64,000 nucleotides of DNA from an uncultured Ruminococcus sp. (GCA_902778145.1 CACYWW010000022.1:42273-106272); one strand, 5' to 3'. Positions 4,596-59,434 are shown, counted from the stretch's first letter. A program made the numbers and translations. The notes: a model not told the origin generated them from the letters alone.

Positions 4596-6696
4596 TTTGT
4601 CTTATCACCATATCCTGCCACTCACGGTTGAGTGTGACGAATCTCGCATTCCAGCCGGAGACCCGGACCGAAAGGTTCTGATAATCCTCCGGTTTCTCCT
4701 GTGCGGATCTGAGGATCGCGGCGTCAGCGACGTCCGGCTGCATGAAAAACCCGCCGAGCAGGACGAAGCCGCGCAGAAGCGACGCGAGCGCTTCAAGCCC
4801 CTCCTCTCCCGCCGTGCACGACGGCAGAAGCCTTATATCGAGCGCCGCTCCCACCGGGAGCTTTGAAAGCTCGTTTTTACAATACGAGCGTATCACCGCC
4901 GTTGCTCCGAGCGTGTCGGTGCCGGGCGTCGGCGACGCGTTCGCCGCGAGGACCTCCCCGCTCTTTCTGCCGTACGGACAGGCGAGCCTGTGCGGCGACC
5001 ATTCGAGCTGGCGTCCGAAGGTGCTGACGCCGCCCGGGAATTTATACCCCGATCTGCCGTCAAGACCGGCGCAGAGATCCGCGAAATCGGATAGGAATCT
5101 GCGGCAGATACCGTCCGCTTCATCGTTGTCGTTGCCGTAGTACGTGTATTTTCCGCTGACGTAACGGCGCAGAGCCTCCGCGCCCTCCCAGTTGTTCCGG
5201 AGTATTTCCATAAAATCGGCAAACCCGATCTTTTTTTCCTCAAACACAAGCTTTTTCAAAGCGTAAAGGCTGTTCACCGTATCGGCAAGACCGCCGACAT
5301 GCGGCGAGATTACGTTATACACGGGCCCGCCCTCAAGATAGGAAAGCCCCTTCTCAACGCATCCCTGCTCAAACAGCGATACGGCGGTACACGGCATACG
5401 TTCAGTCCACACCCACGGATCCTCCGACGAAAATCCCGCTCTTACCGAGGAAAGCAGCCCCTCGAGAAGCGCCTTCACGTCGTCGAGATACGCGCGGTAA
5501 AGCGATTCGAAATCGTCGAATACGGCGGTATAGTCCTTCAGCGTGTTATGCTGAAGGAGCTGCAGAAAATCATACGGGCAATATGTGAAATACGTTTTGC
5601 CGGGGATCTGCACCTCCCAGCATCCGTCGTTCGCGAACCTTCTCGCCTCCTCGGGCGCGTATCCGTAGTTTTCGAGCGACTTTATTATCAGATCCTCGTT
5701 GTAAACGGCGAGAACGCCGCCGCCGAGCCGCATCACCTCCGCGACGCGTCTTATCAGCTTTTCATCCGTGCTGCGGTTAAGCCTGACCGTCGTCGGGAAA
5801 TCGCTTATCCCGAATTCCTCTATAACGTCGAGGATGAGATACGTTACCGGGTTCGTGACATCTCTGCCCTGCTCGTCAACGCCCGAAATGACAAGGTTCT
5901 GATAATGCTGCGCGTCGCCCGAGCCGTAGTTTCCGCCGCGCACCCATTCGCATCCCTTGATGAAGAAATGGGCGATGATCTCACGTGCGCGATCGTTTGT
6001 GAGCGTGCCGTTCTCAATATCCCTCTCGTAATAAGGCTTCAGCATCTTATCGAGCCTGCCGATACCGGGCCAGTTTCCGCAGAGCCGTAAAAACGCAAAG
6101 CAGATCCAGACGCACTGCACCGCCTCGTGAAACGTGGCGGCGGGCTTGTGCGGCACTCGGAGGAGGTTTTTGCGGTTTTCCTCATATCCCTCCATACCGT
6201 CAAGCGCGTCAAGATATCTCTTATGCCATATATCGAAGCTGTCGAGCGTGTGAAGACAGCTTTCAAGAAACTCCTCACGGTCCGTGCCGCGGTGCTTTTC
6301 AAGCGATGAAAGAACGTCGTCTCTCACCCCGTCAAGTCCGCGAGTGAGCACCGTTTCAAAGTCGACCGTCAGATGACTTATACTCGGAAAAACGGCGCCT
6401 TCACCGTATTTCGCGGGAACGAGATGCGAGATCGCCGTGCCGAGAGTGGCGGCGCCGCTCAGAAGCTCGTTTTCGCATATGCGCAGCGGCGCATCCTCCG
6501 CTATTTTGCGGATCGCCGCGTCGTACCGCCCGGTCGGACTCATCTCACCGATCCCGAAAACGTCGGAAATATCGACGTACTGCGTCTCCCACGTCTGTTT
6601 CCCGTATTTGTGTCCGAGAGATTCCCACGCGAATAGTCTCGTCTCCTCACAGCACCTTACGGGTCTTTTTATTCCGTTCACTGACGCGAATTCCAT
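4573..6696 (-). CDS. Glycyl radical enzyme, PFL2-like, substrate unknown
   Basis: 707 aa. C-terminal glycyl radical motif LSVRVSGWNARFVTL. Thiyl loop FANDGCWEVQIPG (Cys with Glu at +2). An adjacent activase is present. An in-frame stop directly upstream fixes the maximal length. Confidence 0.9.
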   Translation of the reverse strand: MEFASVNGIKRPVRCCEETRLFAWESLGHKYGKQTWETQYVDISDVFGIGEMSPTGRYDAAIRKIAEDAPLRICENELLSGAATLGTAISHLVPAKYGEGAVFPSISHLTVDFETVLTRGLDGVRDDVLSSLEKHRGTDREEFLESCLHTLDSFDIWHKRYLDALDGMEGYEENRKNLLRVPHKPAATFHEAVQCVWICFAFLRLCGNWPGIGRLDKMLKPYYERDIENGTLTNDRAREIIAHFFIKGCEWVRGGNYGSGDAQHYQNLVISGVDEQGRDVTNPVTYLILDVIEEFGISDFPTTVRLNRSTDEKLIRRVAEVMRLGGGVLAVYNEDLIIKSLENYGYAPEEARRFANDGCWEVQIPGKTYFTYCPYDFLQLLQHNTLKDYTAVFDDFESLYRAYLDDVKALLEGLLSSVRAGFSSEDPWVWTERMPCTAVSLFEQGCVEKGLSYLEGGPVYNVISPHVGGLADTVNSLYALKKLVFEEKKIGFADFMEILRNNWEGAEALRRYVSGKYTYYGNDNDEADGICRRFLSDFADLCAGLDGRSGYKFPGGVSTFGRQLEWSPHRLACPYGRKSGEVLAANASPTPGTDTLGATAVIRSYCKNELSKLPVGAALDIRLLPSCTAGEEGLEALASLLRGFVLLGGFFMQPDVADAAILRSAQEKPEDYQNLSVRVSGWNARFVTLNREWQDMVIRQNECGCGF

Positions 6697-11374: not shown

Positions 11375-11401
11375 AATAACATCCCTGCCTTTCCTAACTG
11401 G

Positions 11402-11430
11402 ATTTTACCACGGCGCCGTTTGTTTGTCAA
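11402..11430 (-). promoter_or_regulatory. Sigma-A promoter (TTGACA-17 nt-TAAAAT with TGG extended -10) for the oxidoreductase-to-GRE-activase operon
   Basis: The minus strand reads ttgaca aacaaacggcgccgtgg taaaat. The spacing is 17 nt, and it lies about 28 nt upstream of the ATG at 11374. Confidence 0.6.
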
Positions 11431-11478
11431 TACGGAAGCGCCTTTTTGAAAACAAAAAAAGCGCAGCAGACCACTGCT

Positions 11479-11545
11479 CCGGCGCTTCATTCACTCCCGA
11501 CCCTTTGAGCCCCGATCGGTTACTCCATAGCAAAAGGACGCCGTT
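11479..11545. repeat. 67-nt direct repeat, copy 1 (65/67 identical to 12544-12610)
   Basis: ccggcgcttcattcactcccgaccct(t/c)tgagccccgatcggttactccata(g/a)caaaaggacgccgtt. Copy 1 ends exactly at the loop of the hairpin that copy 2 completes. Confidence 0.9.
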
Positions 11546-11793
11546 GCGGTGTACTTCGTAAGGAAGTACACCGCAGCTAAATTCGCCTTGCGGCGAGCTA
11601 AATTGGGCTTCGCCCAGCTAAATTTGCTTCGCAAGCTAAATTTTCGCAAGCTAAATTCGGCTTTGCCGAGCTGAAAAAGGCGAATTTAATTTAGCTGAAG
11701 CCGTGAGGCTTCAATTTAGCTATACGCCGACAGGCGTATAATTTAGCTGACGCAAAGCGGCAATTTAGCTGCCTCAAAGCGGCAATTCAGCTG
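11546..11793. repeat. Modular hairpin array A. A 12-bp stem hairpin is followed by 5 perfect AGCTAAATT words plus 1 degenerate, then 4 perfect AATTTAGCT words plus 1 degenerate. The words are separated by different short GC hairpins.
   Basis: AGCTAAATT words at 11575, 11596, 11616, 11634 and 11649. Inverted words at 11688, 11713, 11740 and 11762. Most spacers are self-complementary (cgccttgcggcg, gggcttcgccc, tgcttcgca, cggctttgccg, gaagccgtgaggcttc, atacgccgacaggcgtat). The leading hairpin is gcggtgtacttc/gaagtacaccgc at 11546-11574. Confidence 0.9.
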
Positions 11794-12019
11794 ATTTATA
11801 AATCATTCCTGCGTCGGTACAGTTAAGACGTGCTGAAAGAGAATAACCCACTATAACACTTTCAATAATAGAAAGATGTCAGAGTGGGTTTGTTTCTTCC
11901 TTACGCAGCCTCTCCCTTTGCGTCCTTTTGCTATGTGATTAACGCTCGAAATCACAAAACATAATTCTCAGCTAAAGCATTTATAATACAAGTGTGAAAA
12001 ACAACAAGATTATGTTAAA

Positions 12020-12366
12020 TTATTTTAATATCTTCCAAAATCCGGAATTATCTGTTCCTTGCCGTACAATATATCCTTTTTCTTTTAATCCTTTAATTGC
12101 TCTTGATACGGTTTTTTCTGATTTGGACAGGGTTGAAGCTATATCTTTGATGATCAGGTAATTATTCTCTTTTAACATATCATAGACCGCTTTTTCTGTC
12201 TTGGACATGTCAAGGACATTTTTATGTCCCTGACGCCGCAGAAAAACAAATCTGAATCCCGTCATCGTATTTTCGTATTCATATTCAACGCCCGCCTCGG
12301 AACAGGCTTTAAACGTTCTTTCAAAGCCGGATCCGAAAGATTCGATAACAGACGACTTGAGATGTC
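12020..12366 (-). pseudogene. 3' fragment of an AlbA_2/HATPase_c_4-type putative DNA-binding protein gene (only the C-terminal wHTH portion remains)
   Basis: The frame is open from about 12366. It reads KSSVIESFGSGFERTFKACSEAGVEYEYENTMTGFRFVFLRR..., then an HTH (IIKDIASTLSKSEKTVSRAIKGLKEKGYIVRQGTDNSGFWKILK). This resembles the C-terminal third of such proteins. An in-frame TGA lies immediately upstream and the N-terminal domains are missing. The context is AT-rich. Confidence 0.55.
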
Positions 12367-12475
12367 AGTGACATTTTTGCGTTAGTAAATGCTTTTTATT
12401 CTTAGATATGCAAAAAAACAAAAATCCTGATTTTAACAGGACTTTTTGCTTTTTGCCTTATCAGGCGATAATGGT

Positions 12476-12496
12476 TGGAGCGGAATACGGGGCTCG
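12476..12496 (-). repeat. 21-nt duplicate of the 3' end of tRNA-Gly (att-like direct repeat)
   Basis: tggagcggaatacggggctcg is identical to 12626-12646. No matching 5' acceptor half is nearby, so this is not a second tRNA. Confidence 0.85.
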
Positions 12497-12543
12497 GTCT
12501 CGCGCCTCGACGGCGCTCGGTCCGGGTCGGCTCTGAAGCGCCC

Positions 12544-12610
12544 CCGGCGCTTCATTCACTCCCGACCCTTCGAGCCCCGATCGGTTACTCCATAACAAAA
12601 GGACGCCGTT
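12544..12610. repeat. 67-nt direct repeat, copy 2 (immediately downstream of tRNA-Gly)
   Basis: See 11479-11545. Confidence 0.9.
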
Positions 12611-12628
12611 GGCGTCCTTTTGTTATGG
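12590..12628 (-). terminator. 18-bp perfect hairpin abutting the tRNA-Gly 3' end
   Basis: ccataacaaaaggacgcc gtt ggcgtccttttgttatgg. It shares the TGG/CCA triplet with the tRNA. Confidence 0.5.
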
Positions 12629-12701
12629 AGCGGAATACGGGGCTCGAACCCGCCACATTCGCCTTGGGAAGGCGACGCTCTACCATATGAGCTAATTCCG
12701 C
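12626..12701 (-). tRNA. tRNA-Gly (anticodon CCC), CCA encoded
   Basis: Cloverleaf folded by hand on the minus strand: acceptor GCGGAAT/ATTCCGC, D arm GCTC-ATATGGTA-GAGC, anticodon arm TCGCC-TTCCCAA-GGCGA, variable loop ATGTG, T arm GCGGG-TTCGAGC-CCCGT, discriminator T, then CCA. Total 76 nt. Confidence 0.9.
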
Positions 12702-12737
12702 AGAATCACCCCGGTCTGCCCGGGGTGGGATCCTTAA

Positions 12738-12914
12738 TTATTTGTATTTGCGCTTTCTCGCAGCCTCGGACTTCTTCTTGCGTCTTACGCTGGGCTTTTC
12801 ATAGCACTCTCTTTTGCGAAGCTCTGTCATGATGCCGGATCTTGCGCAGGCTCTCTTGAATTTCTTGAGCGCGCTGTCAAGAGACTCGTTTTCTTTTACT
12901 CTGACTTCTGCCAT
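12738..12914 (-). CDS. rpsU: 30S ribosomal protein S21
   Basis: 58 aa, so below the ORF-track cutoff. Own translation: [69 protein letters not shown]. Confidence 0.93.
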
Positions 12915-12957
12915 TTTCTTTCACCCCCTTCGCATCGGAGAATAAATTTACTTGAAT

Positions 12958-12986
12958 ATTATACAACCGAACACCGCCGTTGTCAA
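12958..12986 (-). promoter_or_regulatory. Consensus sigma-A promoter for rpsU (TTGACA-17 nt-TATAAT)
   Basis: The minus strand reads ttgaca acggcggtgttcggttg tataat. Confidence 0.65.
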
Positions 12987-23885: not shown

Positions 23886-24877
23886 TGTTCGCTCAATAAT
23901 TCCGCCGTATACGGCGGTATGTCCTTTTCAATGAATTTTATGTTCACGCCGTATTCCTCATACAGCTTCTTTCTGTTCGACCTGTTGTGGCCCGCGGCGC
24001 GGGACGTATGTCCTCTCGGCACGCACACGGTGACGCCGCCTTTTTTATCGCGGACGAGCGCGGAGATGATGTCGTAATAGATGAGAGAATCGCATTTTTC
24101 ACCGACAGCCTCATCGTAGCCGCCGCAGGCGATCTCGCCGCCGCCTGTCAGCCCCTCGTTCGCCTGGAGTCCAACGCGGATCGTCGGCACGCCGTGCTCT
24201 ATGAACACCCGCTTCACGTCAGCGGTGCGGCGGATCAGCTCCTCCGCGGTATACGGCACGTAGGCGCCGTTCTCCGCCATGAAGGCAAGCTCCGTTTCGC
24301 GGAATACGACGATCGGGTATATCCTCGCACCGTCGGCGTATCCGCATATGTCCTCCGCGGTTTTTATCTCGCTTTCGGGCGAGGCGCCGGGGAGTCCCGT
24401 CATCATCTGACCGACAAGCGAGAAGCCCGCTTCTTTTATCATTTTCATAGCCGCAAGCGACTGAGCCGCCGTGTGGCCGCGTCTGCATTCGCGGAGCACG
24501 CGGTCGTCCGTCGACTGTATGCCGAGCTCGACCGTTTTCACGCCGTATTTTTTCAGGCAGGCTATGATCTCCCCGTCTATGTAATCCGGTCTCGTCGAGC
24601 AGCGGAGCGCGGACACCGCGCCTTTTTCGATATACGAGTATCCGAGTCTGAGAAGTCTTATCATCAGAGAACGGTCTATACCCGTGAACGATCCGCCGAA
24701 AAACGCTATCTCCGCGTCGTCGCCGTCGTTCAGCGTCCGGATCGCCCCGTCTATCGTTGTTTTAACGTCTTCTTCTCTGAACTCGGTATGCTCCGTGATT
24801 TTTCTCTGATTGCAGAACACGCAGTCATTCGGACAGCCGAGGTGCGGGATGAAGACCGGGATGTTCTTATGTCTCAT
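23876..24877 (-). CDS. Radical SAM protein (ELP3/coproporphyrinogen-oxidase-like family), function unknown
   Basis: 333 aa. N-terminal IPHLGCPNDCVFCNQ (CX3CX2C). Sits between rnc and smc. Confidence 0.8.
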   Translation of the reverse strand: MRHKNIPVFIPHLGCPNDCVFCNQRKITEHTEFREEDVKTTIDGAIRTLNDGDDAEIAFFGGSFTGIDRSLMIRLLRLGYSYIEKGAVSALRCSTRPDYIDGEIIACLKKYGVKTVELGIQSTDDRVLRECRRGHTAAQSLAAMKMIKEAGFSLVGQMMTGLPGASPESEIKTAEDICGYADGARIYPIVVFRETELAFMAENGAYVPYTAEELIRRTADVKRVFIEHGVPTIRVGLQANEGLTGGGEIACGGYDEAVGEKCDSLIYYDIISALVRDKKGGVTVCVPRGHTSRAAGHNRSNRKKLYEEYGVNIKFIEKDIPPYTAELLSEQCT

Positions 24878-25580
24878 CCCTGATCTCGCCGAAAAGCAGC
24901 AGCGCGTCGTGCGCCGCCGCCTGCTCGGCAGCGCGTTTGCTCTTGCCCGTGCCGCGGCCTATCACGTTGTTCTGATATCTGACGCACATATGGAAGGTCT
25001 TGTTGTGTCCCGGCCCCTCCTCGCTCTCAAGCTCATAGACGACCGTCTCGCCCGGTTCCTTCTGTATGAACTGCTGTAAAAGCGACTTGTAATCCTTTGT
25101 ATGGACGGAAGCCGCCTTTATCTGCGGTATAAGCAGCGGATAAAGGAACTTTTCCGCCGCCGCGCGCCCGCCGTCAAGATATATCGCGGCAAGAAGCGCC
25201 TCGAAAGCGTCCGCGATGATCGACGGATTTTCGCGCCCGCCGTTCTGCTCTTCCCCTTTGCCGAGGTAAAGCGCCTCGCCGAGTCCTATCTTCCTGCCGA
25301 GCTCGGAAAGAGACTCCTCGCAGACGGACGCCGCGCGAATCTTTGTCAGGACGCCCTCCGGCAGGTCTTTATATTCGGTGAAAAGATATTCACTGCAAAG
25401 AAATTCAAGTATAGCGTCGCCGAAGAATTCGAGCCGTTCGTTGAATTTCACCCGGCTCCCGCTCTTGCTGTGTTCATTTGCGTACGATGAGTGCGTGAGC
25501 GCCTCGTCGAGCAGGTCCTTATCCCTGAATTCATATCCTATCGTTTCACAAAACAGTTCGTTCGTCATTTTCAGTTCCAA
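24867..25580 (-). CDS. rnc: Ribonuclease III
   Basis: 237 aa. THSSYANE and [12 protein letters not shown] signature, with a C-terminal dsRBD ([12 protein letters not shown]). Confidence 0.96.
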
Positions 25581-30757: not shown

Positions 30758-30764
30758 GATCAAA

Positions 30765-30992
30765 ATGCAACGATGGAAACAAAGACCCGTAAAGCCTCAT
30801 TCAGAGAGACGCGCCGCGGCTGGAAGCGCGTTATGAGGCAGGCGTCCCGTCATTCCGGAGCAGCGCATGCGAACACGTGAGTCTGTAGTGTGCGACGGTA
30901 CTCCCCGTCAGGAGAAACGAGGCGCGGGCGACCGCGCGAATTCAGGTGGTACCACGGTTTCCCCGTCCTGATGCGGACGGGGGATTTTTATT
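30765..30992 (+). promoter_or_regulatory. T-box leader (tRNA-sensing riboswitch) controlling valS
   Basis: Stem I elements cAGAGAg and GGCUGGAAGC. T-box sequence aattcaGGTGGTACCACGG at 30938-30957. Terminator ccccgtcc-tgatgc-ggacgggg followed by a T run at 30961-30990. A GUC (Val) triplet in ggcGTCc is a candidate specifier (inference). Confidence 0.85.
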
Positions 30993-31008
30993 TGAAAAGG
31001 AGATGCAA

Positions 31009-33636
31009 ATGAGAGAGCTTGCCAAGAATTTCGATCCGCAATCGGTAGAAAAGCGGATATACTCAAACTGGCGTGAAAAAGGATATTTCAAGCCGTCGGA
31101 CGACAGGGAAAAGGAGACGTTCACCATAGTCATCCCACCTCCCAACGTCACGGGTCAGCTCCATATGGGTCACGCCCTCGACGAAACGCTTCAGGACATC
31201 CTCATCAGGTACAAGAGGATGAAGGGATACGCCGCGCTGTGGGTCCCGGGGACCGACCACGCCGGCATCGCGACGCAGATAAAGGTCGAGGAGAACCTCC
31301 GGGTAAACGAGGGATTGACGAGATACGACCTCGGACGCGACAAATTCCTTGAACGCGTCTGGGCGTGGAAGAACAAATTCGGCTCACGTATAATAGAACA
31401 GCTCGAAACGCTCGGCTCCTCCTGCGACTGGGACAGGCTCCGTTTCACGATGGACGACGGGCTTTCCCGCGCCGTCCGCGAGGTGTTCAACAATCTTTAT
31501 GAAAAAGGTCTGATCTACAGGGGCTACCGTATAATCAACTGGTGCCCGCACTGCAGAACGGCTCTGTCCGACGCCGAGGTGGAATACGCGGAGGAAGCGG
31601 GCCACTTCTGGCACATCAGATATCCGGTCAAGGGCAGTGACGAATACGTCACCGTCGCCACCACGCGCCCGGAGACCATGCTCGGCGACACGGCCGTCGC
31701 CGTCAACCCGGCGGACGAAAGGTATACGCACCTCGTCGGCAAGACTCTGATCCTGCCGCTCGTCGGGCGTGAGATACCCGTCGTCGCCGACGATTACGTC
31801 GACCTTGATTTCGGTACCGGCTGCGTGAAGATCACGCCGGCACACGACCCGAACGACTTCATGGTCGGTCAGCGCCATGACCTGCCCGTCATCCGCGTGA
31901 TGAACGACGACGCGACGATCAACGCCGAAGGCGGCAAATACGAGGGCATGGACCGCTACGAATGCAGGAAAGCGATCCTCTCCGATCTTGAGGCGGGCGG
32001 ATATCTCGTCAAGACAGAGGAACACGTCCACAACGTAGGCAAATGCTACCGCTGCGGCACGACCGTCGAGCCGCTGACGTCCGATCAGTGGTTCGTGAAG
32101 ATGGGCCCGATGATACAGCCCGCGATCGACGCCGTGAAGGAGGGCAGGATAAAATTCGTGCCCGAGCGCTTCACGAAGACGTATATAAACTGGATGGAAA
32201 ACCTGCACGACTGGTGCATCAGCCGTCAGCTATGGTGGGGTCACAGGATCCCGGCGTTCTACTGCGACAGCTGCGGCGAAATGACCGTTTCCCGCACGGA
32301 TATAACGGTCTGCCCGCACTGCGGCGCGCCCGTCCGTCAGGATGAGGACGTGCTTGACACGTGGTTCTCCTCCGCTCTCTGGCCGTTCTCGACGCTCGGC
32401 TGGCCCGAAAACACCGAGGATCTGAAACGCTTCTTCCCGACCGACGTTCTCGTCACCGGCTACGATATAATCTCGTTCTGGGTATCGAGGATGATATTCT
32501 CGTCGATCGAACAGACCGGCGAGGCGCCGTTCTCTACCGTGTTCATCCACGGACTCGTCCGTGACGCGCAGGGGCGCAAGATGTCGAAATCCCTCGGCAA
32601 CGGCATCGATCCGATAGAGATCATAGACAAATACGGCGCGGACGCTCTCCGCTTCGCTCTGGCGACCGGCAACTCGCCCGGAAACGACATGAGATTCTCC
32701 GACGAAAAGATAGAAGCCGCGAGAAACTTCACGAACAAGATCTGGAACGCCGCGAGATTCGTCCTCATGAATCTGACGACGGAGGATCTTACGCTTCCCG
32801 GAACGGATAAGCTGCATGTTGAGGATAAATGGATACTCTCCGTTTACAACCGCACCGTATCGGAGGTCAGCGCGAATATCGACAAATTCGAGGTCGGCGT
32901 GGCGCTGTCCAAGCTTTACGACTTCGTATGGGATATATTCTGCGACTGGTACATCGAGCTCATCAAGCCGAGGCTTCTTTCAGACAACAAAGAAGACAGC
33001 GAAAACGCCCAGCGCGTGATACTGTACGTGCTCACCGGCACTCTGAAGATGCTCCATCCCTATATGCCGTTCGTCACCGAGGAGCTTTATCAGGCGCTCC
33101 CGCACGACGCCGAAAGCATCATGATCTCAAAATACCCCGAGCCCTGCGGCGCTCTCTGCTTCCCGGATGACGAGGCTCATATGGCGGCTGTCATCGAGGC
33201 TGTCCGCGCGATCAGGAACAGACGCGCCGAAATGAACGTCGCGCCGTCAAAAAAGGCGTCCGTATATATCGTAACGGAAAACAAGGATGCTTTCAACGAC
33301 CTGACTTCGGTATTCTTCAGAAAGCTCGCGTCCGCGTCGGACGTGACCGTCTGCGACGCATACTCCGAGGAGAACGCCGTCAGCATCATCACTCCCGCCG
33401 CGAGGATATATATCCCGCTCGGAGAGCTTGTCGATATGGAAGCCGAACGCAAGCGCCTTGAAAAGGAAGCCGAAAAGGTCGGCGCTGAGATAGAGCGCGT
33501 GTCAAAGAAGCTCTCGAACGAGGGCTTCGTCTCCAAGGCTCCCGCCGCCGTCATCGAAGGCGAACGCAAAAAACTTGACGCGTATAAGGAAAAGCTCGCG
33601 GGTATCGAAGAAACACTGAAGAAAATGCAGAATTAA
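31009..33636 (+). CDS. valS: Valine--tRNA ligase
   Basis: The track start at 30946 lies inside the T-box terminator. The ATG at 31009 ([10 protein letters not shown]) follows [20 protein letters not shown] and KMSKS motifs, with a C-terminal coiled coil. Confidence 0.96.
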
Positions 33637-36593: not shown

Positions 36594-37318
36594 GGAGCGT
36601 ACTTATAACCGGCGCCTCGCGCGGGATAGGCGCGGCGGCGGCTGAGCTGTTCGCCGCAAACGGATACAACGTCATAATAAACTACAACAGGTCTGAGGAG
36701 AAGGCGCTTTCGCTCTGCGATAAGATCCGCGCGGCGGGCGGCGTTTGCTCCGCAGTGAAAGCCGACATCACCGACCGCGGCGAGGTGCGGCGCATGGTGT
36801 CTCTCGCCGTATACCGCGCGGGCGGCATCGACGTGCTCGTCAACAACGCCGGCGTCGATTTCTACGGCACGTTCGAGCAGACGGAGCCTGCGATATGGGA
36901 CGACGTGATACGCACGGATCTTACGGGCGCTTACAACGTCACGTACGCGGCGCTCCCGGAGATCAAGAATTCGCAAAGCGGACGAATCATAAACATATCG
37001 TCCGTCTGGGGGATACACGGCGCATCCTGCGAGGTGGCGTATTCCGCCGCCAAAGCGGGCATAATAGGCTTTACGAAAGCTCTCGCAAAAGAGCTCGGAC
37101 CGTCAGGGATAACGGTCAACTGCGTCGCGCCGGGTTACATCGATACCGAAATGAACGCGCGCTTCGACCCGGAGACGGTCCGCGATATAATAGACAGGAC
37201 TCCGCTTTCACGCACCGGAAGACCGGAAGAACCGGCGGCGGCGGCGCTGTGGCTCGCTTCTGAGCAGGCGTCGTTCATAACCGGTCAGGTCATCGGCGCG
37301 GACGGCGGATTCATGTGA
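36590..37318 (+). CDS. SDR-family oxidoreductase (FabG-like)
   Basis: 242 aa. ITGASRGIG, NNAG and YSAAK (YxxxK) motifs. 4-nt overlap with the upstream gene. Confidence 0.88.
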   Translation: MRSVLITGASRGIGAAAAELFAANGYNVIINYNRSEEKALSLCDKIRAAGGVCSAVKADITDRGEVRRMVSLAVYRAGGIDVLVNNAGVDFYGTFEQTEPAIWDDVIRTDLTGAYNVTYAALPEIKNSQSGRIINISSVWGIHGASCEVAYSAAKAGIIGFTKALAKELGPSGITVNCVAPGYIDTEMNARFDPETVRDIIDRTPLSRTGRPEEPAAAALWLASEQASFITGQVIGADGGFM

Positions 37319-37353
37319 TAAACAAAAAAAATATTTTCAAGGAGGAAGATCCA

Positions 37354-38100
37354 ATGAAAAAAACTACAGCGATCCTGCTTGCCGTTTTTCTGTGCCTCGG
37401 CTCCGTCATGATGCTCGCATCCTGCGGCGGCAAAGACGCCGACACAACGGCTGAAGGAACAAAAACGACCACGGCGGCGGACAGCGGAAGTGAGCCGGGC
37501 GACACTCAGTCTGACACGGCGGTCGACAGCGGCACGGAGCCGGACGACACTCAGGCCGATACCCAGGCCGATACCCAGGCCGACACTCAGCCCGACACTC
37601 AGACCGAGCCGGACGGCACGAAGGAGTCCACCTCTCTCGTAGAGGACGAGATCCAGCTTTATGAGCCGAGAGACACCGACCACACACCGGTATCCGCGGC
37701 AAACGGCACCGAGCTTGCCTGCAAGTTCACGGTCCCCGCGGACGGAAGACTCACCGGTCTGTTCTTCGAGTCCTGCCCGACCTGGACTTCGGAAGGCTCA
37801 GGCTTCACCGTAGAGCTCTACAAATGGGACAACGACTATGAGAACACCGTAGTCTCCTCTCCTCTGTTCACTCAGGAATTCACCGACTGGCAAGACAACA
37901 AGGAATGTGAGATCGACTTCACGGATGCTGTCGAAAACGGCTTCCAGGGCGGCACCTATATGTGGATATTCCGCGGCACCACCGCCAACATCGGCATCTG
38001 GGCGTATGATCCCTCCGAGGACTGTGAATACTTTGAAAACGGAGTCCCCGGAAACAACGGCTTCAGAGTCGTCGCGTACGTTCTCGTTCCCGAGGAATAA
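37354..38100 (+). CDS. Hypothetical lipoprotein with an acidic Thr/Asp-rich linker
   Basis: Start at MKKTTAILLAVFLCLGSVMMLASCGG (lipobox) after a GGAGGA RBS. The linker contains (DTQA)n. Confidence 0.7.
   Translation: MKKTTAILLAVFLCLGSVMMLASCGGKDADTTAEGTKTTTAADSGSEPGDTQSDTAVDSGTEPDDTQADTQADTQADTQPDTQTEPDGTKESTSLVEDEIQLYEPRDTDHTPVSAANGTELACKFTVPADGRLTGLFFESCPTWTSEGSGFTVELYKWDNDYENTVVSSPLFTQEFTDWQDNKECEIDFTDAVENGFQGGTYMWIFRGTTANIGIWAYDPSEDCEYFENGVPGNNGFRVVAYVLVPEE
37546..37605 (+). repeat. 5 x 12-nt tandem coding repeat (gacactcaggcc/gatacccaggcc variants) encoding DTQA units
   Basis: Units at 37546, 37558, 37570, 37582 and 37594. Confidence 0.9.
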
Positions 38101-38148
38101 GATAAAAGGAGCGGCAGAACGCCGGGTGTTCTTCACGGGACACCCGGC

Positions 38149-38290
38149 AAATGATAAATTCCGCTTACGCGGAATATGATGAGCGCTTACGCGCATGATG
38201 ATCGGCTGTGCCGAATGATGAGTGCCTTCGGCACACCGGCGGTGAAACCGCAAATCATCATTCGTCCGGAAAGCGATCATCATTCCCGGG
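38149..38290. repeat. Modular hairpin array B. The word ATGATGA (3 perfect + 1 degenerate) is separated by distinct GC hairpins, followed by TCATCAT x2.
   Basis: Words at 38176, 38195 and 38215 (38151 is degenerate). Inverted words at 38255 and 38277. Hairpins: ttccgc-ttac-gcggaa, gcgc-ttac-gcgc, tcgg-ctgtg-ccga, gtgcc-ttcg-ggcac, gcgg-tgaaa-ccgc. Confidence 0.85.
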
Positions 38291-38330
38291 GATTTGCGGT
38301 ACAGATTCCCCGCCTGCGCCGATATGCGGC

Positions 38331-38367
38331 AAAAAAACGGCTGAAGTTTACCTCAGCCGTTTTTTTA
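38331..38367. terminator. Bidirectional rho-independent terminator
   Basis: aaaaaaa cggctgaag ttta cctcagccg ttttttt. Confidence 0.7.
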
Positions 38368-43491: not shown

Positions 43492-45017
43492 TGGAAAAGA
43501 TCCTCGTTCTCGATTTCGGAGGTCAGTACGATCTTCTCATAGCGCGCCGCGTGCGCGAGCTCGGCGTATACGCCGAGATACAGCCCTACAACAAAATCAC
43601 GCTTGAACAGATCAAAGAGAACGGATACAAAGGCGTCATATTCACGGGCGGTCCCAACAGCGTATACGATGAAAGCTCGCCGCATTACGACCCCGCGATA
43701 CTCGACGCCGGCATACCCGTGCTCGGCATCTGCTACGGTCATCAGCTGATCGCTTATATGGCGGGCGGCGTGATAGAATCGGCAGGGAGCATAAGCGAAT
43801 ACGGAAAAACGGACGTTTACGCGGAAGGCTCCGCGCTTTTTGAAGGGATCCCCGGAAAAAGCGTCTGCTGGATGAGCCACACGGACTACGTGAGCCGCGC
43901 ACCGGCGGGATTTGAGATAACCGCCCGCACGGACAGCTGCCCCTGCGCTGCGATGGCGGATGAGAGCCGCAGGATATACGGCGTGCAGTTCCATCCCGAG
44001 GTGACCCACACCGAATACGGAAAAACCGTGCTCTCCAACTTCGTTTTCCGCGTCTGCTCCTGCAGGGGCGACTGGCGGATGGACGATTTCATAGAAAGAT
44101 CGGTCGAAAAATACAGAAAAAAGCTCTCCGGCAAGCGCGTGCTGTGCGCTCTTTCGGGCGGGGTGGATTCATCCGTCGCCGCGGTACTGATGCACCGTGC
44201 GATAGGCGATGATCTGACGTGCGTTTTCGTCGACCACGGTCTTCTCCGCAAAAACGAGGGGGACGACGTGGAGCGCGTTTTCCGCGGCGGGTTCAACATG
44301 AAGCTCGTGCGCGTTGACGCGGAGGAGCGGTTCTTATCACACCTCAGGGGCGTGACAGAGCCCGAGAAAAAGAGAAAGATAATAGGTGAGCAGTTCATAC
44401 GCGTTTTTGAGGAACAGAGCCGTGTGCTCGGCAAGATGGACGTGCTCGTACAGGGCACGATATACCCGGACGTCGTAGAAAGCGGCAAGGGCGACGCGTC
44501 GACGATAAAGAGCCACCACAACGTCGGAGGCCTTCCGTCCGTCATGGATTTCGAAGAGATAGTCGAGCCTTTGCGCGAGCTTTTCAAGGACGAGGTGAGA
44601 GCCGTCGGTCTGAAGCTCGGCATACCCGAGGCGCTCGTAATGCGCCAGCCGTTCCCCGGTCCCGGGCTCGCCGTGCGTATAATCGGAGAGATAACAAAAG
44701 AAAAAGCCGACACCCTGCGCGAGGCGGATGCGATATTCAGAGAAGAGCTTGAGAAAGCCTCTGTCCGACCGAGCCAGTATTTCGCCGTGCTCACGGACAC
44801 GCAGAGCGTGGGCGTCATGGGAGACGCGCGTACGTACGGTCACACCGTTGCGCTGCGCGCCGTCACGACCGACGATTTCATGACCGCCGACTGGACGCGC
44901 ATACCGTATGAGGTAATTGACTCCGCGTCCCGCAGGATAACGAACGAGGTCAGAACGATAAACCGCGTCGTATACGACGTAACGTCCAAGCCTCCCGCCA
45001 CGGTGGAGTGGGAGTGA
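43491..45017 (+). CDS. guaA: GMP synthase (glutamine-hydrolysing)
   Basis: 508 aa. GATase domain (GICYGHQ), ATP-PPase SGGVDSS, and the canonical C-terminus [14 protein letters not shown] overlap with purB. Confidence 0.97.
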
Positions 45018-45199
45018 GCCGCGAAGCGGCAATTATGATCGCCTGACGGCGAATTATGAATTATGATGCGCTTCGCGCAATTATGAGTTGCCTTCGGCAA
45101 CATAAGGTGTTCGGTTCGGGCGATCATATCATAATGTTCGGCGTTAGCCGAACTCATAATTTTCGCCGTAGGCGAAATCATCATTGATCATTTATCATT
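45018..45199. repeat. Modular hairpin array C, copy 1. The word AATTATGA x4 alternates with hairpins, followed by TCATAAT(T) words and their hairpins.
   Basis: Words at 45031, 45052, 45059 and 45079. Inverted words at 45129 and 45154, plus degenerate tcatcatt/tcattt. Hairpins: gccgc-gaa-gcggc, cgcc-tgac-ggcg, tgcgc-ttc-gcgca, gttgcc-ttc-ggcaac, gttcggc-gtta-gccgaac, ttcgcc-gta-ggcgaa. Confidence 0.9.
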
Positions 45200-45326
45200 A
45201 TATTTAATGCTAAAAATCGTATCAACCTGTATAAGTCAAAGAAAAACACGCTGTTTCACCCCGAAAAGAGGGGCTAAAACAGCGGCAAACAACACATATA
45301 AATTTGAATTAAGCGAATGGGAATGA

Positions 45327-45495
45327 GCCGCGAAGCGGCAATTATGATCGCCTGACGGCGAATTATGAATTATGATGCGCTTCGCGCAATTATGAGTTGC
45401 CTTCGGCAACATAAGGTGTTCGTATCATAATGTTCGGCGTTAGCCGAACTTATAATTTTTGCCGTAGGCAAAATCATAATTGATCATTTATCATT
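45327..45495. repeat. Array C, copy 2 (near-identical to 45018-45199 apart from a 13-nt deletion and a few substitutions)
   Basis: The first 96 nt are identical by eye to 45018-45113. It is preceded by gaatgggaatga, which mimics the guaA end gagtgggagtga. Confidence 0.9.
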
Positions 45496-45521
45496 TTAAT
45501 TTACATAAAGGATGATAATTT

Positions 45522-45896: not shown

Positions 45897-46004
45897 GGAA
45901 TAGTTATGATCAACACCTACGATCTGTATGATTTGTACGAGGCAAAAATAGAGGCAAACAGCCCATATAAACTTGAATTAAGCGAGTGGGAATGATTTTA
46001 TCAG

Positions 46005-46059
46005 TTATGATCGCCTGACGGCGAATTATGAATTATGATGCGCTTCGCGCAATTATGAG
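46005..46059. repeat. Array C, partial copy 3 (left half only)
   Basis: ttatgatcgcctgacggcgaattatgaattatgatgcgcttcgcgcaattatgag, preceded at 45984-45995 by gagtgggaatga. Confidence 0.85.
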
Positions 46060-46107
46060 CCGCTTTGCGGCATTTACCGCATATTATAAAACATACAGAG
46101 GAACAAT

Positions 46108-47596: not shown

Positions 47597-47827
47597 AACG
47601 GCACTCCGGTGCCGTTCAAAGTGAAGACAAACTCCCTCAGTCATCCGGGAAGCTTCCCGGATGACAGCTCCCCCAAGGGAGGAGCCTTGTTTTGCCTCCC
47701 TCTTAGAGGGAGGTGTCAGTTTTGCCTCCCTCTTAGAGGGAGGTGTCACGACGTTCAGTCGTGACGGAAGGAGTAGAATAAAGAATAAAAACTTTGTCTG
47801 CAAGTTGAACGGCACTCCGGTGCCGTT
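47597..47827. repeat. Hairpin-forest element bounded by identical 20-nt palindromes plus ~15-nt inverted flanks. It contains a perfect 2 x 30-nt tandem repeat.
   Basis: aacggcactccggtgccgtt occurs at 47597-47616 and 47808-47827. The inner flanks caaagtgaagacaaa and tttgtctgcaagttg are inverted. Internal hairpins: tcatccggg-aagc-ttcccggatga, cctccctc-ttag-agggagg (twice, in the tandem repeat 47689-47748), gtcacgac-gttca-gtcgtgac. Confidence 0.85.
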
Positions 47828-57658: not shown

Positions 57659-57693
57659 GATCCGCGGAGCCTCGGCTCCGCGGATCATTTTTT
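57659..57693. terminator. Bidirectional rho-independent terminator
   Basis: gatccgcggagcc tcg gctccgcggatc, flanked by aaaataaaa and attttttatttt. Confidence 0.75.
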
Positions 57694-59341
57694 ATTTGAG
57701 TATGAAAGCCGCGCACGGCACGCCGTCGCTGTTGCAGAGCGTCAGCGTCTCCGGGAACGTGTCCGTGAGTCCCGAGTTATATCCGACCTCTTTTATGGCT
57801 TTGCTGCCCTTTATGACTATCGTGTCCTTACCGGTGATCTCAACGCTCTCCGGCGCCTTATACTGTGACGAGCCGGAGTATTTTACCTTTACGCCCTTGA
57901 CCTCGCCGCCTTCGGCTTTGAGTCCGTCTCCGACGTTCCTGAATTTCACCGTGACAGTCAGACCTTCATCGGATGATTCCATGGAGATCGCGGACGGTCC
58001 TTCGGCGTATTCCGGATCACCTATCCCGTACTGATTTGCGAGGATCATCGACGTAAGTCTCTGCGCCTGCTCCCATTTGACGTACGGATGCAGACTGTTC
58101 GCGTACTTGCTGTCCTTCCACAGATCGGACGACTGACAGATATGCGCGTTTGACAGGCTGTTCGGTATCGTACCCATATACTGGCGCACGCTCGCGAACG
58201 GGAAGCTCTGCCAGATCGCCGGGAATTCGATGATATAGACGGGATAATCGTGTACCAAAAGATCGTGTCTGTTCCTGTACTCGGTTATCAGCGCGGAAAA
58301 TCTCTCCGGATATTTCTTGTCGTTCGGGGACTGGCAGTCCGATTCGCCCTGATACCAGATGATACCGCAGATCGGCAGCTTCTGGAACGCGTACATATAG
58401 TGGTTGTACATGAATCTCGTCGGGTGGTTGTTCACGCTCGGCGCGGTGTATATCCCCTTCGTCTTGTTCAGTTTATCTATCTTGAGGCTGTCGCAGACCT
58501 CGTTCGGGCAGAACGCGTTGAGAGCCGCTCCGCTCCAGCCGAATTCTATCATACCCAGAGGTATCTTTCCCTCAAGCTTTTCGTAAAGCTGTTTCGCGGT
58601 GAAGAAGCCGAGCGCCGAGAACAGTCTGTATCCGTTGGCGGGAAGCTGCCAGCCGCGCTTTATCGGCGTATCCTTGTTGACGTCCGTCGTGCCCTGAGTC
58701 AGCCCGGACGGGTCGGAGGAGCCGCTTCTGTGCAGTCTTATGAGCTCGTTGTTGTCCGCTATCCTCGATTTGTTCTCGGGACCCGCGAGAGGCTCCGCTA
58801 TGATGGCCTCGACCGGGTATTCGATATTGGACTGACCGACGACCCAGAAAACGTCGCCTACGAGAACGTCGTCGAACAGGTATTCAACGCCCTCGCCGTA
58901 GACTCTGAACTGTCCCGGGACAGTCGATTCGGGGAGCGACCCGTTCAGCGTTATCATGAACTCGCCGTTCTCGATGAGAGCCGCGCCGGTGAGTCCGGAA
59001 AACTCCGCGTTGACTCTTTTACCGTTCTGATCTTCGTCGGCGAAGCCCCAGACTCTTATATATTCGTTCCTCTGTATCACCATGTGATCTCCGAACACGC
59101 CGGATACGGTGAAGGCTGTCGCCGCGGGCGCGGCAAGCACCTCCTCGGAGGGCTCCGGGAACGGCGACGCGGTGGTCGTCTCCTCCTCGGTCGTCACCTC
59201 CTCGGTCGTCACCTCGGCGGTCGTCTGCTCAGGGACGGTCGTATCGGGCGAGACCGTCGTATCGTCTCCGGATCCTTTGGTGCAGCCGACGGCCGAAAGA
59301 AGCATCAGGGCGCACAATATCACAGATATGATTCTTTTCAT
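57692..59341 (-). CDS. SGNH-type carbohydrate esterase, sialate O-acetylesterase-like lipoprotein
   Basis: Start at MKRIISVILCALMLLSAVGC (lipobox) after GGAGG. DVFWVVGQSNIEYP (GQSN block) and GIIWYQGESD motifs. Confidence 0.75.
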   Translation of the reverse strand: MKRIISVILCALMLLSAVGCTKGSGDDTTVSPDTTVPEQTTAEVTTEEVTTEEETTTASPFPEPSEEVLAAPAATAFTVSGVFGDHMVIQRNEYIRVWGFADEDQNGKRVNAEFSGLTGAALIENGEFMITLNGSLPESTVPGQFRVYGEGVEYLFDDVLVGDVFWVVGQSNIEYPVEAIIAEPLAGPENKSRIADNNELIRLHRSGSSDPSGLTQGTTDVNKDTPIKRGWQLPANGYRLFSALGFFTAKQLYEKLEGKIPLGMIEFGWSGAALNAFCPNEVCDSLKIDKLNKTKGIYTAPSVNNHPTRFMYNHYMYAFQKLPICGIIWYQGESDCQSPNDKKYPERFSALITEYRNRHDLLVHDYPVYIIEFPAIWQSFPFASVRQYMGTIPNSLSNAHICQSSDLWKDSKYANSLHPYVKWEQAQRLTSMILANQYGIGDPEYAEGPSAISMESSDEGLTVTVKFRNVGDGLKAEGGEVKGVKVKYSGSSQYKAPESVEITGKDTIVIKGSKAIKEVGYNSGLTDTFPETLTLCNSDGVPCAAFILK

Positions 59342-59434
59342 TTCTTTTCCTCCGTTATATCGTTCTGCCCCATTATATAACAACCGTCGGCTTTTGTCAA
59401 TCCCTTGCGGGATTATAAACAGCTTTATTGAAGG

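Follow-up and report, generated by a model that had tools for sequence, protein, structure and literature searches.

A hairpin array of an uncultured Ruminococcus is related to the Gut-1 RNA motif and may be a dispersed DNA repeat

We analyzed a 64,000-nucleotide (nt) stretch of DNA from an uncultured Ruminococcus sp. (GCA_902778145.1 CACYWW010000022.1:42273-106272), called the window below, which carries at positions 11546 to 11793 an array of short repeated words separated by small hairpins (array A). Judging from its sequence, array A is a homolog of the Gut-1 RNA motif (RF01706) that scores under the formal threshold of that family, and it represents a noncoding, multicopy, quasi-palindromic repeat of gut and rumen Clostridia. 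With a little better than even confidence, we regard it as a nonautonomous dispersed DNA repeat similar to the REP, REPIN, and BIME elements of proteobacteria rather than as a dedicated RNA gene. The sequences themselves show the Gut-1 homology, the anatomy of the arrays, the concerted change of their words, the strand asymmetry of their hairpin loops, a filled and an empty site at this locus, the dispersal of copies, and the hypermutability of the arrays by insertion and deletion (indels).

The Gut-1 match surfaced only when Rfam was searched in E-value mode; in gathering mode, the whole window yielded only tRNA-Gly. The left arm of array A matched the full model (positions 1-77) at 11574-11646 on the + strand with 36.7 bits (E = 9e-6 when 351 nt were searched and 0.0017 over the whole window), which does not reach the gathering threshold of 50. 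The score falls short mainly because the linker differs: it is AGCUAAAUU in array A and not (A/G)GUGA(A/U)AUU, and GCUAAAU agrees with the Gut-1 consensus GUGAAAU at 5/7 positions. That consensus comprises three hairpins separated by GUGAAAU; Weinberg et al. (2010, Genome Biol 11:R31, PMC2864571; RF01706) found Gut-1 solely in human-gut metagenomes and assigned it no function. Array A has the corresponding architecture, tandem G+C-rich hairpins with a repeated linker, in 5 units. Its local alignment with the seed sequence BAAZ01000322 spanned 95 nt, taking in the lead hairpin and everything through hairpin 3, with a score of 61 (z = 23; shuffled sequences, 17.3 ± 1.9). The lead-hairpin loop (CGUAAGGAAG), hairpin 1 (h1), and hairpin 3 (h3) are the same in both sequences, and the changes in the stems of the lead hairpin and hairpin 2 (h2) are compensatory; as read by eye from the alignment, both partners had changed in six pairs, four of them belonging to the lead hairpin and two to h2, and no pair was broken. 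The preliminary description of this DNA had recognized no known class of noncoding RNA here and had itself named a match to a described family as a refutation of that view; the homology with Gut-1 is such a match.

The likeness extends beyond the Rfam model, which covers just three hairpins of one arm and is treated as a small RNA (sRNA). Flanks of the Gut-1 seeds show a lead hairpin, four word-hairpin units, a center starting with GGCGAAU, and a mirrored arm. In BAAZ01000322, the left arm reads lead hairpin GAGGCGCACUCCGUAAGGAAGUGCGCCUC, AAUUAUAUU-CGCCUGACGGCG, AGUGAUAUU-GUCCUUUGGAC, AGUGAUAUU-AUGCUUCGCAU, and CGUGAUAUU-GCCUGCGGC; the center, ending in CAGGCGAAUAUA, is followed by three copies of (A)UAUCAC and one of AUAUCAU, with a hairpin after each of the first three. 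Gut-1 and array A share the 7-9-nt linker plus G+C-rich mini-hairpin repeated at least three times, the positions of h1 and h3, the center starting GGCGAAU, the mirrored arm, an origin in gut Clostridia or metagenomes, and a frequent location behind a terminator that follows a tRNA gene or stop codon. Neither the two-arm form nor the recoding of words, the bias of loop types between strands, or the insertion within the loop of a terminator appears in the main text, one-line supplementary note, and alignment of PMC2864571, and a full-text literature search returned no paper on Gut-1 beyond 2010 and likewise none on tandem hairpin repeats.

Array A is built from a lead hairpin, two arms facing each other across a short center, and an A+T-rich tail. 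The lead hairpin (11545-11575, + strand) was delimited as an inverted repeat and by alignment to BAAZ01000322, with whose lead hairpin it is homologous; it has a 13-bp perfect stem and the loop GTAAG. In the left arm (11575-11668, + strand), which contains most of the Gut-1 match (11574-11646), the word AGCTAAATT occurs five times exactly (11575, 11596, 11616, 11634, and 11649), each copy being followed by a mini-hairpin: CGCCTTGCGGCG, GGGCTTCGCCC, TGCTTCGCA, TTCGCA (the remnant of a duplication), and CGGCTTTGCCG, in this order. The center (11669-11687, + strand) consists of a degenerate word, AGCTGAAAA, at 11669, plus AGGCGAATTT. In the right arm (11688-11804, + strand), the reverse complement AATTTAGCT occurs exactly at 11688, 11713, 11740, and 11762 and with one mismatch at 11784; the arm comprises these four exact words plus AATTCAGCT, the hairpins GAAGCCGTGAGGCTTC, ATACGCCGACAGGCGTAT, GACGCAAAGCGGC, and GCCTCAAAGCGGC, in order, and then the palindrome GATTTATAAATC. 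The spacers measure 12, 11, 9, 6, and 11 nt on the left and 16, 18, 13, and 13 nt on the right and are small G+C-rich hairpins except for the 6-nt one. The array presents direct repeats on one side and inverted repeats on the other, with a period of 18-25 bp and units of 15-27 nt. The nine exact words span 220 nt and recur nowhere else in the window, where all 10 of 10 matches to AGCTAAATT with at most one mismatch fall inside array A. Word counts and positions, degenerate copies, and the grammar of variable mini-hairpins were thus recovered as first described. An A+T-rich tail of the inserted segment (11805-11919, + strand) contains a long imperfect hairpin at 11837-11898. By eye, its end (GCAGCCTCTCCC and CTTCCTTACG) seems to resemble the ends of the Gut-1 seed BAAZ01000095 and, in inverted form, the loop region of the lead hairpin. 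A mimicry of tRNA by AAUUUAGCU (tRNA-Gly begins GCGGAATTAGCTCA) was considered and dropped because other words show nothing similar.

On either strand, array A folds far more stably than dinucleotide shuffles (z = −8.9 for the + strand and −9.5 for the − strand). It had been stated that the spacers of the two arms are not complementary to each other, and this needs correction: 11615-11632 and 11680-11697 are 83% complementary, 11578-11589 and 11677-11688 are 100% complementary, and the minimum-energy fold of the − strand contains cross-arm spacer pairs. The perfect match joins the end of the first word and the 5′ arm of h1 to the center. This complementarity is conserved with differing sequences in Gut-1 seeds and in the contigs L132, L191, and L144; the first word plus h1 arm and the center read TAAATTCGCCTT and AAGGCGAATTTA in array A, UGAAAUUUGCCC and GGGCAAAUUUCA in the seed BAAV01002358, GAAATAAATCC and GGATTTATTTC in L191, and GAAATCCACCC and GGGTGGATTTC in L144.

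To describe the family, we took a census of words and spacers in 21 arrays with 98 spacers, among them ∼15 two-arm arrays. For detecting arrays, a scan for k-mer runs was cleaner than a scan for hairpin chains, which returned largely false positives from G+C-rich coding sequence. The basic module consists of a lead hairpin plus 3-6 units, each a 7-9-nt A+T-rich word and a perfect G+C-rich mini-hairpin, and most copies have two facing arms, the second with the complementary word. The two arms are equivalent, each being a single-arm array that runs opposite to the other. Such arms occur on their own in L050, L119 (5′ untranslated region [UTR] of an orthologous oxidoreductase gene), L073 (leuS 5′ UTR), L237, and the seed BAAZ01023714, and in L083 the arms face outward as a divergent pair. 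The earlier idea of a word-to-word zipper is compatible with the data in that complementary arm words recur in ∼15 arrays; pairing between arms is not required, since single-arm arrays exist.

The words change in concert. Between the seed and array A, all words are recoded alike, from AGTGATATT to AGCTAAATT, with the complementary change in the opposite arm, while the terminal word copies are degenerate in both array A and BAAZ01000322. Among the ∼15 two-arm arrays, which use at least six different words, the right-arm word is always the complement of the left-arm word (one mismatch in L028). The word AGCTAAATT also occurs with other hairpins in the unrelated contigs L127, L130, and L132. The hairpins vary: 93 of 98 spacers are distinct, and 75 have a perfect stem of at least 4 bp, compared with 8.2 ± 2.7 in shuffles. 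Corresponding hairpins can nevertheless be followed under different words, as h1, h3, the center, and the right-arm counterpart h1′ correspond among array A, the Gut-1 seeds, and C1, a further array of the window (45018-45199). Hairpin 1 of C1 (TCGCCTGACGGCGA) is identical to hairpin 1 of BAAZ01000322 (z = 10).

The hairpins also differ between strands. On the strand that reads the right-arm type of word (W′, e.g., AATTTAGCT or ATTTCAC, the complement of the left-arm word W), the loops are mostly (50 of 83) GNA triloops or GNNA tetraloops, and 49 of these 50 are closed by C-G; complementary TNC loops account for 2/83. C-G-closed GNA and GNRA are among the most stable small DNA hairpin loops, and GNRA likewise is in RNA. 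The W′ strand is the more stable one with RNA and DNA parameters alike and is opposite to the strand modeled by Rfam. In a set of 92 hairpins, 66 spacers formed one end-to-end perfect hairpin, and among the stems, with 441 Watson-Crick pairs, a search for mismatches found two G·T and two A·G, too few to assign a transcribed strand.

These features bear on the main alternative, in which array A would be a structured RNA in its own right (a small RNA or part of a UTR), with each arm transcribed. It would act as RNA, for example as a hairpin-cluster terminator, as a stabilizer of 5′ or 3′ ends, or as a sponge for protein or RNA through its single-stranded words. We consider this possible but distinctly doubtful. 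Hairpin structure is kept while sequence changes, the strand-specific loop types point to a single-stranded form, several arrays lie within transcription units, after stop codons or in 5′ UTRs, and an RNase III encoded in the window (24867-25580) could process a long rod. However, G·U pairs are nearly absent from the stems (2 in 441), which is unusual for functional RNAs, and the favored loops are on the strand that Rfam does not model. Relative to genes, the arrays have no consistent orientation: L050 and L119 are W-sense, whereas L073 is antisense. Many copies begin directly behind the T-run of a terminator, which leaves no room for a promoter, and words differ between arrays of one genome, which speaks against one common binding partner. 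The covariation reported for Gut-1 may partly stem from the alignment of paralogous units. Hairpin clusters less than 80 nt from stop codons have been proposed as termination units, with hairpins <15 nt apart, starting ≤80 nt from the stop codon, and no need of a U-tract (Gupta & Pal 2021, PMC8355165). Array B of the window (38121-38290), C1, and L050 fit this placement; those clusters, unlike the arrays, are not described as identical-linker repeats or as dispersed homologs (PMC8355165). Array A itself follows no coding gene.

In the order of the − strand, the locus of array A contains rpsU, tRNA-Gly(ccc) (12701-12626), its terminator hairpin (12627-12591), a short duplicate of the 3′ end of the tRNA (12498-12478), a decayed islet, the array A region, an intrinsic terminator (11477-11463), a near-consensus promoter (TTGACA-17-TAAAAT, 11430-11402), and an operon for a Gfo/Idh/MocA oxidoreductase, a PFL-like glycyl-radical enzyme (GRE) and its activase, and two proteins without Pfam matches. 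The GRE operon and the decayed tRNA-Gly islet had been named as neighbors, which holds; the distance given, ∼150 nt upstream of the promoter, becomes 116 nt to the −35 box, and the intrinsic terminator lies between. The 16-mer CATA(G/A)CAAAAGGACGC occurs four times, twice in the intact tRNA-Gly terminator hairpin and at 11526-11541 and 11920-11935, and the ∼60 nt after that terminator are duplicated at 11480-11525. The segment of ∼373 nt between the latter two copies (11546-11919: array A and the A+T-rich tail) therefore sits in a duplicate of the terminator hairpin, which it splits between the loop and one stem arm. The intact hairpin (CATAACAAAAGGACGCC-loop-GGCGTCCTTTTGTTATG; 12591-12627, − strand), directly 3′ of tRNA-Gly(ccc) (12626-12701), represents the empty site. 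In the duplicate, the left arm of the outer stem (11513-11541) holds a terminator-arm copy (CATAGCAAAAGGACGC) plus flank and pairs with the right arm (11920-11948), which holds the other arm of the duplicated hairpin (GCGTCCTTTTGCTATG), as a 29-nt inverted repeat (79%). The Gut-1 seed BAAZ01000095 likewise lies within a larger hairpin after a stop codon.

Similar positions recur among the other copies. Arrays directly follow a (bidirectional) terminator after tRNA genes in L132, L163/L191/L252, and BAAZ01025322 and directly follow a stop codon in C1, L050, and BAAZ01000095. The same element with the same hairpins stands in different flanks in L127 and L132 and in four BAAZ contigs. Arrays with other words occur in 5′ UTRs, between cistrons, and between convergent or divergent genes; the one in L119 lies between a promoter and its ribosome-binding site.

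Arrays beside tRNA genes and the guaA 3′ end, both classical integration sites, together with a guaA end that is triplicated along with its array and the direct and inverted repeats with a period of 18-25 bp, could also be read as a double-stranded array of protein-binding sites. The words would then be iteron- or operator-like or serve as transposase or recombinase sites, with the hairpins as mere spacers, on the model of Tn7 or Mu ends, attP arm-type sites, or heptad operators; words such as ATATCAC presumably resemble the WATCACW heptads of the pSM19035 omega repressor. We judge this quite unlikely. Three different words occur within 64 kb, no recombinase or transposase was found nearby among the open reading frames (ORFs) of the window by Pfam, arrays also occur in 5′ UTRs of housekeeping genes, and double-stranded spacers do not need the hairpin constraint and strand-specific loops.

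The arrays are also where assemblies of this organism differ. Two of them showed 0 substitutions and 4 indels over 17.4 kb, with all indels in hairpin arrays. In array A, a 15-nt duplication (TTCGCAAGCTAAATT) that gave rise to the 6-nt spacer and includes half a hairpin is absent from the independent assembly L001; between the two assemblies, the center of C1 differs by 5 nt and that of its paralog C2 (45327-45500) by 8 nt; and at 47689-47748 the window has one 30-nt unit more than the ENA assembly. The surrounding 30-nt tandem repeat (47676-47748), whose unit is a hairpin (GCCTCCCTC-TTA-GAGGGAGG) plus linker, is flanked by two AACGGCACTCCGGTGCCGTT hairpins (47600-47617 and 47808-47827). Logan contigs end at arrays, L002 starting at window position 11573, at the first word of array A, and L318 ending at 45044 inside C1, so the arrays fragment short-read assemblies.

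Broken contigs and differing unit numbers are what would be expected from a local accident, i.e., a one-off slippage product or an assembly artifact that belongs to no family. This explanation, to which we give hardly any credence, is refuted by the presence of array A in two independent assemblies, by its homology to human gut metagenome sequences deposited in 2007-2010, and by same-word arrays in unrelated contigs. The artifact that the preliminary description had asked about was checked directly, and array A is present in both the window and the ENA contig ERZ27280284:k141_769301. The mode of growth is a separate matter. Small hairpin modules could have been inserted repeatedly into one word, duplicating it each time; a word-hairpin-word pattern with different hairpins would be expected, C1 has two adjacent words with no hairpin between them, and hairpin-less heptamer runs stand at arm ends, as in C1 and a Gut-1 seed. 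Such a stepwise build-up is very unlikely. The order of hairpins is the same under different words in array A, C1, and the seeds, and the array therefore predates the change of words, and the single unit gain observed is the 15-nt duplication, which brought in one half of a hairpin rather than a novel one.

The perfect Watson-Crick pairing of the stems, the bias of the loops, the placement of arrays at hairpins, and the indel hot spots point to events in single-stranded DNA (ssDNA). For the dispersed DNA repeat that we favor, we infer a mechanism in which the element would spread to, or grow at, terminator hairpins and would change by slippage and short gene conversion in ssDNA with extruded hairpins. 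Extrusion would juxtapose neighboring words and align the words of one arm with those of the other in several registers, and slippage or repair of these word pairings would homogenize the words only. Hairpin extrusion bringing words together would thus explain why words are identical or complementary while the hairpins evolve separately. Where the element lies inside a transcription unit, it would give the RNA a very stable cluster of hairpins, which may serve as a 3′-end element or a stabilizer and as an obstacle to read-through; such a cluster would be comparable to the termination units of Gupta & Pal and to 3′ stabilizers of the REP type.

REP elements of proteobacteria evolve through single-stranded hairpin forms. 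Like the arrays, REP, REPIN, and BIME elements are dispersed short extragenic palindromes, present singly or in inverted doublets or mosaics, that are located at 3′ ends and in the gaps between convergent genes and form part of mRNAs. In contrast, a REP has a conserved hairpin with a 5′ GTAG and variable linkers, whereas each array conserves its linker and has variable hairpins, and the host of the arrays is a Firmicute. Membership in these proteobacterial classes was rejected given the 93 of 98 distinct hairpin spacers and the lack of a Y1/RAYT domain by Pfam among ∼39 ORFs of the window.

A different version of the single-strand reading holds that Gut-1-type arrays are unrecognized hairpin-array elements that act as ssDNA, with the C-G-closed GNA/GNNA mini-hairpins of the W′ strand as the active form. 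The arrays would be, for example, recognition or priming sites for a structure-specific enzyme that places them at terminator hairpins, and their words would be rewritten jointly across the arms by register-shifting intrastrand pairing and repair. We think this unlikely; if it were true, the Rfam sRNA would have been modeled on the wrong strand and as the wrong molecule.

Several points weigh against the dispersed-repeat reading. Gut-1 is classed as an sRNA by Rfam and by Weinberg et al., who rated it certainly an RNA on the basis of covariation (PMC2864571). Among the features that mark a MITE, no target-site duplication was seen at the insert junctions (GGACGC|AAAGGG ... CACCG|CAACGG), and the insert has no clear terminal inverted repeats, with weak inverted similarity (CGTAAGGAAG) near its ends. 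By Pfam, no transposase, integrase, or RAYT was present among the ∼39 ORFs of the window. The intact and interrupted hairpins are paralogous hairpins in one genome, not alleles, and mobility, which we infer, rests on the different flanks of metagenomic copies, perhaps from different organisms. Some of the indels that separate the assemblies may be errors introduced by the assembler within repeats. Finally, the words may reflect selection for a word-specific binding partner, and gene conversion would then be one explanation of their uniformity among others.

Further searches concerned the insert and its surroundings. No insertion sequence related to the insert was found in the window, and blastn of 11520-11930 against phage and plasmid collections gave no match. 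In a metagenome scan, the upstream regions of relatives of the oxidoreductase (76-86% amino acid identity) shared nothing with 11375-12960 but a 28-nt match in L108, and a LeuS-based scan of GTDB species genomes gave no close relative (best, 76-78% amino acid identity). The decayed islet behind tRNA-Gly (11949-12498) has a G+C content below that of its surroundings. In it lie the duplicate of the tRNA 3′ end (21 nt; 12478-12498), an 81-amino-acid ORF (12020-12265), and, at 12420-12446, a bidirectional terminator.

That the same grammar recurs in the window with other words, as described initially for two loci, was confirmed for arrays B and C1, and two more arrays were found at 45327-45500 (C2) and 46004-46071 (C3), all given on the + strand. 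Arrays B and C had no Gut-1 match in Rfam; L050 and L028 had weak ones. Array B (38121-38290; words ATGATGA/TCATCAT) consists of a lead hairpin, three copies of AATGATAA / ATGATGA with hairpins, a center, and two copies of ATCATCATT, and it lies between the stop codon of a 261-amino-acid ORF (38100) and a bidirectional terminator (38330-38366); no record of the 261-amino-acid protein was found. C1 (45018-45199; words AATTATGA/TCATAAT) begins 1 nt past the guaA stop and has four copies of AATTATGA, a center, two copies of TCATAAT(T), and then hairpin-less heptamers; one word junction lacks a hairpin. Its paralog C2 follows a copy of the last guaA codons, and C3 is a single-arm paralog just upstream of a GH43 gene (46108). 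The last codons of guaA (...EWE*) with an array occur three times (45006-45017, 45315-45326, and 45984-45995), and a lone low-G+C gene of the 23S-rRNA-intervening-sequence type (four-helix bundle, PF05635; 45522-45896) lies between copies 2 and 3. The triplication looks as if integration at the 3′ end of guaA had taken place repeatedly. A coding reading of C1-C3 (small ORF MNYDALRAIMS...) was rejected, as the sequence diverges past the shared repeat.

In agreement with the preliminary description, which had recognized it as none of these, array A is not a REP/BIME element, a CRISPR array, or an attC site. CRISPR repeats measure 23-55 nt and have nonpalindromic spacers of 26-72 nt; here, repeats of 9 nt alternate with hairpin spacers of 6-18 nt, and the window has no cas domains. 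An integron attC site is one imperfect palindrome of 57-141 nt, and no R-box cores (GTTRRRY), cassette ORFs, or integrase typical of such sites were found at array A. A type III antitoxin RNA (ToxI-like, with 34-40-nt repeats) does not agree with units of 15-27 nt and differing hairpins, and the nearest downstream gene, behind a terminator and promoter, encodes the Gfo/Idh/MocA oxidoreductase and no ToxN-like toxin. Elhai et al. in 2008 reportedly described small dispersed repeats embedded in cyanobacterial heptamer tandem repeats. Heptamer repeats of cyanobacteria (TAACTGA, PMC4679880) resemble the arrays as A+T-rich intergenic direct heptamers, sometimes with small palindromic inserts; unlike the arrays, they are mostly contiguous, with one heptamer genome-wide and no two-arm mirror (PMC4679880).

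Several other features were recorded along the way. Within the window, a T-box leader (30761-30973; 81.5 bits against the Rfam threshold of 93) lies directly upstream of valS (30946-33636), and gene orientation switches there, with the sign of the GC skew changing in the same 30-32-kb bin. In-frame tandem repeats occur in the ORFs 37315-38100 (12 nt, ∼5 copies, 37545-37607) and 57692-59383 (15 nt, ∼3.5 copies, 59174-59225). Adjoining array arms or between them, L100 has ∼4 copies of a tandem unit of ∼24 nt (2040-2340), and L144 has four iteron-like copies of GTAACTTGCCG (∼5190-5240). L028 carries a group II intron at 83-1846 (Rfam matches to D1-D4 and to domain V-VI), which lies ∼9 kb from a GTGATAT-type array, with no apparent link.

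Gut-1 has been an orphan since 2010. Array A and its relatives give it a fuller anatomy, with two arms, pairing between the center and the first unit, recoded words, GNA/GNNA loops, placement at terminators, and fast indel turnover, and these findings on the family outweigh the locus itself. The joint change of 9-10 short words with the intervening hairpins untouched represents an unusually clean case of very-short-tract homogenization. If the arrays are DNA repeats, gut and rumen Clostridia would own a counterpart of REP/BIME elements; these arrays would break short-read assemblies and could be used as strain markers, and in housekeeping genes such as guaA they may shape the 3′ end of the mRNA.

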